The notes under the pieces were generated by a model. It was given only the letters and a program-made list of their open reading frames with translations. It had not been told where the DNA came from and searched no databases. 24,660 nucleotides of DNA, from assembly GCA_019057635.1 (NCBI GenBank), contig DXJL01000058.1, positions 1 through 24,660 of the forward strand. Reading direction: 5' to 3'. Below, one piece after another: positions 8,104-22,623 of this stretch. Position 1 is the stretch's first letter. Each line of letters opens with the position of its first letter. This DNA is from Candidatus Heimdallarchaeota archaeon. Its GTDB lineage: Archaea > Asgardarchaeota > Heimdallarchaeia > Hodarchaeales > Hodarchaeaceae. The position numbers and the translations under genes are program-made.

Positions 8104-8311
8104 ATTATATTTCTTTCTATCTATTAACACTAATCCAGTCTTCTCCTGGTGTTAAAACCTTTTTATTTTATCTGATTTTTTCACAATTTTTCTCGTTATT
8201 TTCGGAAAGTTGTCTATGTAAACTTGCCAATTGAGAATTTGGAAAAGAAGGGTGCTTTGCACTACTTTCTGTATTAGTATATTTATTTGATTAGTTGTTC
8301 AGAAAAGATAG

Positions 8312-8416
8312 TGGGCCGGAGCAGACTTGAACTGCCGACCTCCTCCGTGTCAGGGAGGCGTCAATCGCAGACTGACCAGATTCTCCGATCAGTTTACCGG
8401 ACTAGACCACCGGCCC
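8312..8416 (-). tRNA. tRNA-Val(GAC) with a 30-31 nt D-loop intron (about 8364-8394)
   Basis: Acceptor GGGCCGG/CCGGCCC, anticodon arm CCTCC-CTGACAC-GGAGG and T arm GGCAG-TTCAAGT-CTGCT. The insert between GGTA and TGAC folds as ACTGATCGGA-GAA-TCTGGTCAGT. CCA is not encoded. Confidence 0.93.
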
Positions 8417-19280: not shown

Positions 19281-19359
19281 AAAATCTCAGTTAGAAAATT
19301 ATTAAAAGATCTAATGTATTTCAATAACATGAGATACTAAAGAATGCTCCCCCTTTAAA

Positions 19360-19558
19360 GGGAACGTAGCGAAGCTAGTGGACTCGCTAGTTTCTAGCGA
19401 GACCGGACAAGTATCGCGCCGGGCTCCAGAACCCCCTGTGAACTCCACTGGGTTGACTGAAACTCATGATGAAGTTCTGGAACAATGAGGAAACTCGGTG
19501 TCATTCTTGCATGTCGCAAGGTGAACGAAAATCGCCAGTTCAAATCTGGCCGTTCCCA
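19360..19558 (+). tRNA. tRNA-Trp(CCA) with three inserts: D-loop, 37/38 and 45/46
   Basis: Acceptor GGGAACG/CGTTCCC, D stem GCGA/TCGC, anticodon stem CCGGG/CTCGG with CT-CCA-G|A, T arm GCCAG-TTCAAAT-CTGGC. The gene spans 199 nt versus about 75 for the mature tRNA. Confidence 0.9.
19430..19492 (+). ncRNA. Intron-encoded box C/D guide RNA within pre-tRNA-Trp
   Basis: CTGA at 19457-60, ATGATGA at 19466-72 and ATGA at 19485-88. Guides CACTGGGTT and GTTCTGGA are complementary to AACTCGGTG and TCCAGAAC of the same pre-tRNA. Confidence 0.8.
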
Positions 19559-19896
19559 CTTCCTTTTTTAATTAGATTAGATCTCTCTAGAAAGACTTTC
19601 TAATACTTCCACCATAATATCCACTAGCGACATTGTGCAAATGGAGAGTTATCCGAAACTGAGCAATTAATCGATTTTAATTTGTTTAAAAACGATTTAA
19701 TTATTGATGAGGTAGTTTTAGAGAAAGAAAGCCAATATCGATAGATTCGGTATTTTGGGTCTTTTTTCTAAAATCAGGAGTTTATTAAAAGATGCCCCCA
19801 GATGATGGTCCAATCGGTCTTTAAGAATCCACAGGTCGAATTACCTGATTCCCTTCCTTTTTTTTAGAATGAATCTACAAATAAAAAGAGATATTA

Positions 19897-22526: not shown

Positions 22527-22623
22527 GGGCCGATGGTGAAGCTGGTATCACGCCGCCTTCGCAAGGCGGAGATTGCAAAAATGCGACCGTATCCCCCGAG
22601 TTCAAATCTCGGTCGGTCCACCA
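22527..22623 (+). tRNA. tRNA-Ala(CGC) with a 21-nt intron at 45/46 (22572-22592); CCA encoded
   Basis: Acceptor GGGCCGA/TCGGTCC with G3-U70, anticodon arm CCGCC-TTCGCAA-GGCGG, T arm CCGAG-TTCAAAT-CTCGG. Removing 21 nt gives exactly 76 nt. Confidence 0.95.

Follow-up and report, generated by a model that had tools for sequence, protein, structure and literature searches.

A tRNA-Trp(CCA) gene with three introns in an Asgard archaeon, one of which has the layout of a dual box C/D guide

RESULTS

Organization of the tRNA-Trp(CCA) locus

The window, i.e. the whole stretch of DNA that was analysed (24,660 nt), contains a tRNA-Trp(CCA) gene with three introns on the plus strand at 19360–19558, in which all four tRNA stems are present. 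The acceptor stem is formed by GGGAACG (19360–66) and CGTTCCC (19551–57), the D stem by GCGA (19369–72) and TCGC (19414–17), which enclose 41 nt, and the anticodon stem by CCGGG (19419–23) and CTCGG (19494–98), with a loop that reads CUCCAG...A. The enclosed D-loop region contains a perfect hairpin, CTCGCTAG-TTT-CTAGCGAG, at 19383–19401. The variable region (19499–19533) is 35 nt long and includes a second hairpin; removal of 19501–19530 reduces it to TGATC. These features had been described in the initial annotation as four stems with three oversized regions, i.e. the 41-nt D region with its hairpin, a 63-nt anticodon insert at 19430–19492 and the 35-nt variable region from which TGATC is restored, and each was recovered here.

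Exon 1 (19360–19378) comprises the 5' strand of the acceptor stem, U8 and A9, the 5' strand of the D stem, and D-loop residues A14 to G18. It is followed by intron 1 (19379–19410, 32 nt), which lies between G18 and G19 and consists of an h' hairpin and a weak central helix with the bulges AG|U and AA|G. Exon 2 (19411–19429) contains G19, U20 and A21, the 3' strand of the D stem, G26, the 5' strand of the anticodon stem and loop residues C32 to G37, including the CCA anticodon at 19426–28. Intron 2 (19430–19492, 63 nt) occupies the canonical 37/38 site and has the layout of a dual box C/D guide. Exon 3 (19493–19500) supplies A38, the 3' strand of the anticodon stem (residues 39–43), U44 and G45. 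Intron 3 (19501–19530, 30 nt) interrupts the gene at site 45/46 and is made up of a central helix and an h' hairpin with the bulges UG|U and AA|A. Exon 4 (19531–19558) provides A46, U47 and C48, the T arm (19534–50), the 3' strand of the acceptor stem and the discriminator A19558; it does not encode the CCA tail. All of these features are on the plus strand.

A BRE/TATA-like element, AGAAAATTATTAAAA, was identified on the plus strand at 19293–19307, approximately 52–67 nt 5' of the mature 5' end, and an equivalent element, cgAAAAtTATTAAAAg, was present at equal distance in 14 of the 14 orthologous flanks shown. This element would act as the promoter and give rise to a 5' leader of about 30 nt. 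An oligo-T tract is read on the plus strand at 19564–19569, just beyond exon 4, and T-rich tracts follow most of the orthologues. This tract is likely to be an archaeal transcription stop.

The three inserts (19379–19410, 19430–19492 and 19501–19530) were removed in silico, and ARAGORN identified the product as tRNA-Trp(CCA) with a score of 123.2. The spliced model has stems of 7, 4, 5 and 5 bp, the anticodon CCA, G18 and G19, the T-loop UUCAAAU and a discriminator A. All three removals were required: when either the D insert or the variable-region insert was retained during scripted removal, ARAGORN made no Trp call, and the unspliced locus was missed by both ARAGORN and Rfam. The initial annotation had proposed a tRNA-Trp gene with three introns. 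This proposal was borne out with the type of D cut that it contained, which scored 114, as well as with the revised cut used here, which scored 123.

Host genome and candidate processing enzymes

The genome assembly comprises 3.19 Mb in 214 contigs, with 36% GC and an estimated completeness of 91.6%; the window corresponds to its contig C22. It encodes Vps28 and an ESCRT-II subunit no more than 6 kb apart on one contig (C20), neither of which was matched in 14 control genomes, as well as a eukaryote-like actin. From the presence of Vps28, the ESCRT-II subunit and actin we conclude that the genome is that of an Asgard archaeon. Among solved structures, its actin was closest to 'HC1 actin' (716 bits), and HC1 is a cultured Hodarchaeales strain. 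This match is no more than a hint of the class, which looks to be other than Atabeyarchaeia and Jordiarchaeia/Freyarchaeia. The profilin Pfam model had no match in this genome and none in the control genomes either, and was thus uninformative.

Two paralogues of the splicing endonuclease EndA are encoded on contig C82, an alpha subunit of 189 aa at 49329–49898 and a second protein of 215 aa at 80650–81297. The alpha subunit was closest to the catalytic subunits of crenarchaeal heterotetramers (3p1z, 3ajv, 2cv8 and 2zyz; E 1e-32 to 1e-42). The Tyr/His/Lys triad is retained in this subunit, and the lysine of its specific loop, K46, aligned to K44 of Aeropyrum (A.) pernix. The second paralogue has Val in place of the catalytic His. 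The RNA ligase RtcB (554 bits) and fibrillarin (270 bits) are encoded as well. Asgard archaea are reported to have an (alpha-beta)2 EndA with a specific loop, a lysine of which confers broad specificity and cleavage of relaxed motifs (PMC5829648).

Conservation of the locus and copy number of tRNA-Trp

A DNA search for the locus was carried out in 41 genomes, i.e. the genome itself and 40 relatives. The whole locus was found in 19 of 21 same-genus genomes at 74–99% identity, and the two genomes with no match were 70% and 90% complete. Among the 19 loci, 14 were complete with three inserts, two contained four inserts, and three were truncated by contig ends. The fourth insert (G005 and G006) is a T-loop intron with a canonical hBHBh' motif, which was read by hand. 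One genome (G001) also carries partial 5' and 3' copies alongside the full gene.

Orthologous genes were aligned, as the initial annotation had recommended, and the alignment contained compensatory changes in both the tRNA stems and the intron hairpins. Over the 15 complete rows, 98% of the alignment cells in the cloverleaf and the intron hairpins pair, versus 32–44% when the partners were slid. Changes on both sides of a pair were found at nine pairs and in 29 cells, values that were reached by 1 and 0 of 500 shuffles, respectively; all rows come from one genus and most of the events derive from two or three divergent genomes. The acceptor pair 4:69 appears as three pair types (GC in eight rows, AU in four and CG in three), and the T stem contains compensatory changes at two pairs. 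Since in-silico splicing gives a tRNA-Trp, the locus is conserved in 19 of 21 genomes and covariation exceeds that of the shuffles, we conclude that the locus is more than a chance arrangement. It is a real tRNA-Trp(CCA) gene with three introns.

We also looked for additional tRNA-Trp genes. No other tRNA-Trp was present among the 31 calls made by ARAGORN with the -i option on the 91.6%-complete assembly, and the Rfam tRNA model gave 23 hits in the assembly with no further tRNA-Trp. A scan for CCA-containing loops with accompanying stems, T arm and acceptor identified seven loci, of which the present locus was the sole convincing, GC-paired one. A simpler second tRNA-Trp, which the initial annotation had named as evidence that would count against three introns, was thus not found in this assembly; a second gene may lie in the remainder of the genome. 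Two relatives assembled as single contigs, G010 (96% complete) and G007 (71% complete), each contained one match, which was the present locus, and a third single-contig assembly, G015 (70% complete), contained no match.

The D-arm intron

The h' helix of intron 1 (19380–86 with 19398–404) has both-side changes in four of its seven pairs, and the spacing between this hairpin and the cuts corresponds on both sides to exact BHB geometry. The central helix (19373–76 with 19405–08) is weaker. Only 60% of its cells pair, no compensatory change was found, and two of the four pairs form in 12 of the 15 rows, including the present genome; all four pairs form only in G021 (L008) and G001 (L020). When the D stem forms, the 3' bulge becomes 5 nt, so that strictly this is no BHB. 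No candidate that fits a normal D-loop emerged when the D region was scanned for a strict hBHBh' motif.

A short D-arm motif with room for 0–40 nt at the insertion site was used to search 83 genomes from the class. In G022 (L193), which belongs to a sister family, this search identified a tRNA-Trp gene with an uninterrupted D-arm that is identical to the predicted splice product. The gene has an acceptor stem, a CUCCAG loop, a box C/D anticodon intron and a variable-region insert that is longer than in the present locus; introns 2 and 3 are both present and differ in length from those described here. As the D-arm of G022 is compact, the 18/19 intron site is fixed independently of any motif. 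This distribution suggests that the D-arm intron was gained or lost within the order. Neither the same-genus relatives nor G022 provided a case without intron 2 or intron 3. A further match to the D-arm motif, L194 in G031, was rejected as coding sequence.

We considered whether the D-loop insert might remain unspliced as an extra hairpin in the mature tRNA, such that the gene would have two introns only. The weak central helix (60% of cells) is compatible with this reading, as are the strongly conserved structure of the D hairpin and the RNA runs described below, in which no spliced read was found. However, the G18/G19–T-loop contacts needed for tRNA folding would be broken by a 41-nt D-loop. 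The sister-family orthologue in G022 has no D insert, the hairpin-to-cut spacing fits a BHB exactly, G021 and G001 have all four central pairs, and ends or junctions of RNA contigs coincide with 19379/80 and 19411. D-arm inserts have also been reported as intervening sequences of Asgard tRNA genes in a recent preprint (10.64898/2026.10.13.758758). Retention of the D insert is very unlikely when these observations are taken together.

The positions of the cuts were examined by comparing five models of D-arm splicing in the 15 aligned rows. Cuts at 19378|19379 and 19410|19411 leave a 9-nt D-loop with G18 and G19, and this G18|G19 cut gave the top ARAGORN score in 15 of 15 rows (123–125.5). Of the four other models, cuts like those of the initial annotation scored 114–117 and a third model 119–121, and hairpin-based cuts reached about 101 or produced no call. 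The alignment columns that flank the G18|G19 cut are invariant (A19377 and G19378 on the left; G19411, U19412 and A19413 on the right), and 19379 and 19410 vary freely.

The initial annotation had called the D-loop boundaries ambiguous, with a loop that is too long after strict BHB cutting and A at position 18 after the alternative cut. Boundaries of its type would either remove about 30 nt, so that 11 nt remain in the D-loop, or follow the strict hairpin, so that the loop remains too long. In favor of the former, TCGC recurs at 19384–87 and 19414–17 in this genome, so that a 30-nt deletion gives a perfect D arm and an ARAGORN score of 114. However, the first TCGC is not conserved in relatives, the cut scores lower than the G18|G19 cut in every row and leaves variable bases in the mature D-loop, and G001 retains G18 and G19 only under the G18|G19 cut. 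The compact D-arm of G022 matches the G18|G19 model exactly, and no tRNA call, or a score of about 101, results from the strict and hairpin-only cuts. We regard these boundary sets as very unlikely, and the comparative data place the cuts at 19378|19379 and 19410|19411. A reading with an intron at 25/26, in which the D stem would take its 3' strand from TCGC at 19384–87, was also rejected, as these bases are not conserved in relatives.

The anticodon-loop intron as a box C/D guide

The 63-nt insert at the 37/38 site contains a box C/D guide that was absent from the initial annotation. In 5' to 3' order on the plus strand, it consists of a C-like box, GUGAACU (19438–44), a 12-nt spacer (19445–56) directed at C39 (nucleotide 19494), a D' box, CUGA (19457–60), a C' box, AUGAUGA (19466–72), a second 12-nt spacer (19473–84) directed at C34 (nucleotide 19426), and a D-like box, AUGA (19485–88). 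The internal D' and C' boxes are canonical and near-invariant. The terminal C and D boxes (GUGAACU and AUGA) are degenerate with the GA cores kept.

The first guide segment (19446–54) can form 9 bp with 19492–500, which places C39 at the fifth pair upstream of D', and the second (19474–81) can form 8 bp with 19425–32, which places C34 at the fifth pair upstream of D. In the alignment, 100% of the cells pair in the C39 duplex and 98% in the C34 duplex. One compensatory change was found (GC to AU at 19450:19496), together with one change from GU to GC. The splicing motif of this intron uses the anticodon stem as helix h. It has three of four central pairs, an invariant C.A mismatch and an h' helix of 1 bp. 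From its boxes, spacers and duplexes, the 63-nt intron is a dual box C/D guide that positions C34 and C39 for predicted 2'-O-methylation.

A permissive Rfam scan of the locus gave chance-level matches only, the C/D match being sR3 (10 bits, E 3.3). A 14-base guide pattern was also used as a query. In a species-level genome collection, the archaeal matches listed (L022, L075 and L078) were coding sequence and the other matches listed were due to chance. In 301 genomes of the phylum, the pattern matched in 67, and nine of the 11 out-of-genus loci that were read were chance matches in coding sequence or lacked a tRNA context.

The variable-region intron and competing helices

The central helix of intron 3 pairs the 3' strand of the anticodon stem (19495–98) with 19525–28, and 91.7% of its cells pair. 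Compensatory changes occur at two pairs, from UA to CG in one row and from CG to UA in two rows. The helix has 4 bp in 10 of the 15 rows and 3 bp in the present genome, where one pair is G.A. The h' hairpin is formed by 19502–10 and 19516–23 and helix h is absent, giving an HBh'-like motif. The boundaries of intron 3 agree with those in the initial annotation. All three introns are bounded by relaxed BHB forms. The same design is found elsewhere in the window, where tRNA-Ala(CGC) (22527–22623) contains a 21-nt intron (22572–22592) whose central helix has 4 bp.

Covariation links nucleotide 19496 to three other positions, 19421 in the anticodon stem, 19450 in the guide and 19527 in the central helix of intron 3. 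C19496 is replaced by U in two genomes, and 19421, 19450 and 19527 have all changed from G to A there. Therefore, one exon base is read by three mutually exclusive helices. The initial annotation had proposed that the BHB motifs compete with the tRNA fold and that splicing possibly proceeds in ordered steps. The competition holds for the variable-region intron, since the anticodon-stem 3' strand is also one side of its central helix, and the order of the steps is only hinted at by the data.

RNA-library contigs at the locus

Six metatranscriptome runs matched part of the window, and four of them (X15–X18) were aligned to the locus; the data are assembled contigs with a depth of 2–4.6. The X15 contig covers 19411–19558 plus a 50-nt trailer and starts at the first base 3' of intron 1. 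Two X16 contigs cover 19375–19491 and 19415–19491 and both stop 1 nt before the end of intron 2; the limit at 19415 reflects divergence from the window and is not a contig end. The X17 contig (19380–19530) ends at the last base of intron 3. The X18 record reads 19472–19499 and then 19378–19501, i.e. it contains a circular junction. Five contigs thus cover the locus, and seven of their eight ends lie within 1.5 nt of a predicted cut, versus 12% expected; the corresponding binomial probability of 2.7e-6 is naive, in that contig ends are non-independent, unitig ends may reflect strain branching and 19410 is a variable column.

No exon–exon joint was found in the four runs, and exon 1 and the leader were uncovered. 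This carries no weight as a sign of absence, since mature tRNAs are poorly captured and the data consist of contigs; RNA libraries can also contain DNA. The 37/38 intron was retained in all four runs, which hints that it is removed last or is itself the most stable product. The contigs lend moderate support to transcription of the locus and to cleavage at the predicted sites, and fall short of proving splicing. That the locus is a decaying or silent pseudogene, with a working tRNA-Trp in the unassembled 8% of the genome, is very unlikely: the assembly is 91.6% complete in 214 contigs and partial copies do accompany the full gene in G001, but the stems are intact and co-vary across 15 genomes, the promoter element is found in 14 of 14 flanks, the single-contig assemblies G010 and G007 have the present locus as their one match (G015 has none), and the RNA-library contigs cover the locus and include a circular junction that DNA could not give.

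The 151 letters of the X18 record were reproduced only by 122-nt circles closed at 19499/19378, 19500/19379 or 19501/19380. The circle is 121 nt in the X18 strain, and 121 + 30 equals the length of the record, which we take to be the length expected for a cycle in a k=31 graph. At the junction, the 5' cut site of intron 3 is linked to that of intron 1 to within 1 nt. The short side of the junction is 28–30 letters, below the 31-letter rule of the tool, and the junction contains a 3-nt microhomology (GTG); a template switch by reverse transcriptase is a possible source. We also inspected by hand whether a circle of 19379–19500 could be the intron of one BHB formed between the two 5' bulges. This candidate was rejected, as its central helix is unpaired.

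There is a small chance that the 122-nt circle, which would run from intron 1 through exon 2 and the box C/D intron to exon 3, exists as a genuine, abundant RNA and is not a by-product. In that case the cuts of two introns would be combined and the ends ligated, giving a stable circular box C/D RNP in which both guides are linked to copies of their own targets. Such an RNP could work in trans, on further pre-tRNA-Trp molecules, or could set the yield of tRNA from the precursor. Multi-intron tRNA genes would then have a product of a new type, which would provide a reason to keep the extra introns.

DISCUSSION

A model for maturation of the tRNA

The explanation that best accounts for these results as a whole, and one that we hold with considerable confidence, is that the locus is an Asgard tRNA-Trp(CCA) gene with three BHB-type introns, of which the one at 37/38 doubles as a dual box C/D guide. 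In our model, a precursor with a leader of about 30 nt would be transcribed from its own BRE/TATA-type promoter. Each intron would be flanked by a BHB-type motif composed of a 3-nt bulge at each cut, a central helix that pairs the final exon bases with the 3' end of the intron, and an intron hairpin. An (alpha-beta)2 EndA with the Crenarchaea-specific loop and its lysine would cut these motifs, and RtcB would join the exons. The two spacers of the 37/38 intron would each base-pair with an exon target, i.e. the anticodon loop or the anticodon-stem 3' strand, and fibrillarin would thereby be directed to ribose methylation at C34 and C39. The anatomy of the gene, its conservation and covariation, the boundaries of the D intron, the presence of the enzymes and the RNA-library contigs with ends at predicted cuts have been shown, and the chemistry of cleavage, the methylations and the sequence of steps are inferred.

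Exon bases 40–43 take part in three mutually exclusive helices, as they belong to the anticodon stem, to the duplex with the guide and to the central helix for splicing at 45/46, so that maturation would have to pass through successive folds. One exon segment that serves stem, guide and splicing, with compensatory substitutions common to all three, makes the order of maturation directly testable.

The D-arm intron, which gene finders miss, could be located at single-nucleotide resolution with no more than its relatives as a guide. The D-arm and T-loop introns are present in some of these relatives and absent from others, which provides a natural series for dating intron gain. The results also bear on annotation, in that the only tRNA-Trp found in this genome is invisible to ARAGORN and Rfam.

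Comparison with known systems

Several introns per tRNA, up to three BHB introns at non-canonical sites, are reportedly found in Thermoproteales (Sugahara 2008; Fujishima 2010). The present locus resembles those genes in having several introns at non-canonical sites and a host with an (alpha-beta)2 EndA that has the specific loop. It differs in that its host belongs to a different phylum and has a mesophile-like genome (36% GC). By eye, nothing indicated that the three introns had arisen as copies of each other. A eukaryotic nuclear tRNA gene offers a more distant parallel, as it has three introns spread over different arms and a modification tied to the presence of an intron; there the modification is pseudouridylation by protein enzymes, whereas here it would depend on an intron-encoded guide.

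The box C/D guide intron of euryarchaeal pre-tRNA-Trp(CCA) is said to have been described in primary papers by Clouet d'Orval (2001) and Singh (2004). According to a later review (PMC4090602), the pre-tRNA-Trp intron of Haloferax volcanii and its relatives is a box C/D RNA that selects C34 and U39. The H. volcanii system and the present locus share a dual box C/D RNA in the 37/38 intron of tRNA-Trp(CCA), with guide pairing that overlaps the exon–intron junction and competes with the splicing motif. Unlike the H. volcanii system, the present gene resides in an Asgard host with an (alpha-beta)2 EndA and has C instead of U at position 39, degenerate terminal C and D boxes, and a fixed C.A mismatch in the BHB central helix. 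In addition, there are two further introns here, one of which uses the target strand of the guide for its splicing helix. A tRNA-Trp box C/D intron of the euryarchaeal type thus exists in an Asgard lineage.

The statement in the initial annotation that tRNAs with three introns are known mainly from Thermoproteales is outdated, as multi-intron Asgard tRNA genes have been published (PMC11291895; 10.64898/2026.10.13.758758). The first of these (2024) gives introns in 92–95% of the tRNA genes of Asgard genomes and several introns in over half (PMC11291895). The second, a preprint by Goswami et al. (October 2026; 10.64898/2026.10.13.758758), describes up to five intervening sequences per Asgard tRNA gene, D-arm inserts that are missed by tRNAscan-SE, and BHB motifs that are weaker at D-arm and variable-region sites. 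The terms 'Trp', 'methylation' and 'transcriptom' do not occur in the main text of that preprint, whose supplementary tables may still list the gene.

The present locus agrees with these published cases, in which the BHB of some inserts is canonical, in having several inserts per gene, a D-arm insert that escapes standard finders, relaxed BHB motifs in the D-arm and variable region, and a two-paralogue EndA. Those papers center on Atabeyarchaeia and Jordiarchaeia/Freyarchaeia, whereas our genome seems to represent a lineage other than those studied so far for multi-intron Asgard tRNAs. As multi-intron Asgard tRNA genes were already known from the 2024 and 2026 studies, the gene described here is a further, well-resolved example. 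It adds to the known cases the presence of a box C/D guide in Asgard archaea, covariation among three helices, relatives with four introns, and the ends of RNA contigs at the locus.

Additional tRNA introns in the host genome

Only 31 tRNA genes were found in the whole host genome (G000) using the tRNA finder ARAGORN with introns allowed. An intron was called in 18 of these; some of the 31 gene calls are dubious (Pyl, 'Stop'), and under the same setting many isoacceptors had no call, among them Trp, Cys, His, Phe, Tyr and Asn. The small number of genes found, together with the many missing isoacceptors, suggests that many further multi-intron tRNA genes are hidden in this genome.

The tRNA-Ala(CGC) gene of the window (22527-22623, plus strand) contains one intron of 21 nt at site 45/46 (22572-22592). 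In its BHB motif, the central helix GCGG/CCGU forms 4 of 4 pairs, alongside a 5-bp intron helix h' and the two bulges AG|A and AU|C. In silico removal of 22572-22592 yielded an ARAGORN value of 121. Unlike the tRNA-Trp gene, this gene encodes its 3' CCA. ARAGORN, with introns allowed, also called an intron-containing tRNA-Asp on the minus strand of the window (8311-8416).

tRNA-Trp introns, fragments and guide-like loci in relatives

A fourth tRNA-Trp intron of ~31 nt, at T-loop site 59/60, was observed in two same-genus species, G005 (locus L016, about 1501-1733) and G006 (locus L017, minus strand). It has a canonical hBHBh' motif in which the central helix is UUCA/UGAA and the outer helix is the T stem.

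In a third same-genus relative, G001, contig C16 carries a full tRNA-Trp gene and two fragments (L195, L185 and L162). The 5' fragment, ~110 nt upstream of the full gene, holds the acceptor, the interrupted D-arm and the 5' strand of the anticodon stem, ending at U33. The 3' fragment, ~22 kb away, extends from the interior of the box C/D intron to the discriminator; the anticodon is absent from both. A past duplication could have left these fragments behind, or they could represent a free-standing box C/D unit.

In two loci of the sister family, L170 (G022) and L171 (G023), a C-box precedes the Cm34-type guide found in the tRNA-Trp intron, and a box containing GA comes after it; tRNA exons are absent from the surroundings. 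Each locus may represent an independent box C/D sRNA gene or may have matched by chance.

Processing and ESCRT genes

Contig C82 of the host genome carries an EndA paralogue, fibrillarin and several tRNA genes. On another host contig (C20:12347-18732), ESCRT-II (Vps25-like) and ESCRT-I (Vps28-like) genes lie <6 kb apart, an arrangement typical of Asgard ESCRT clusters.
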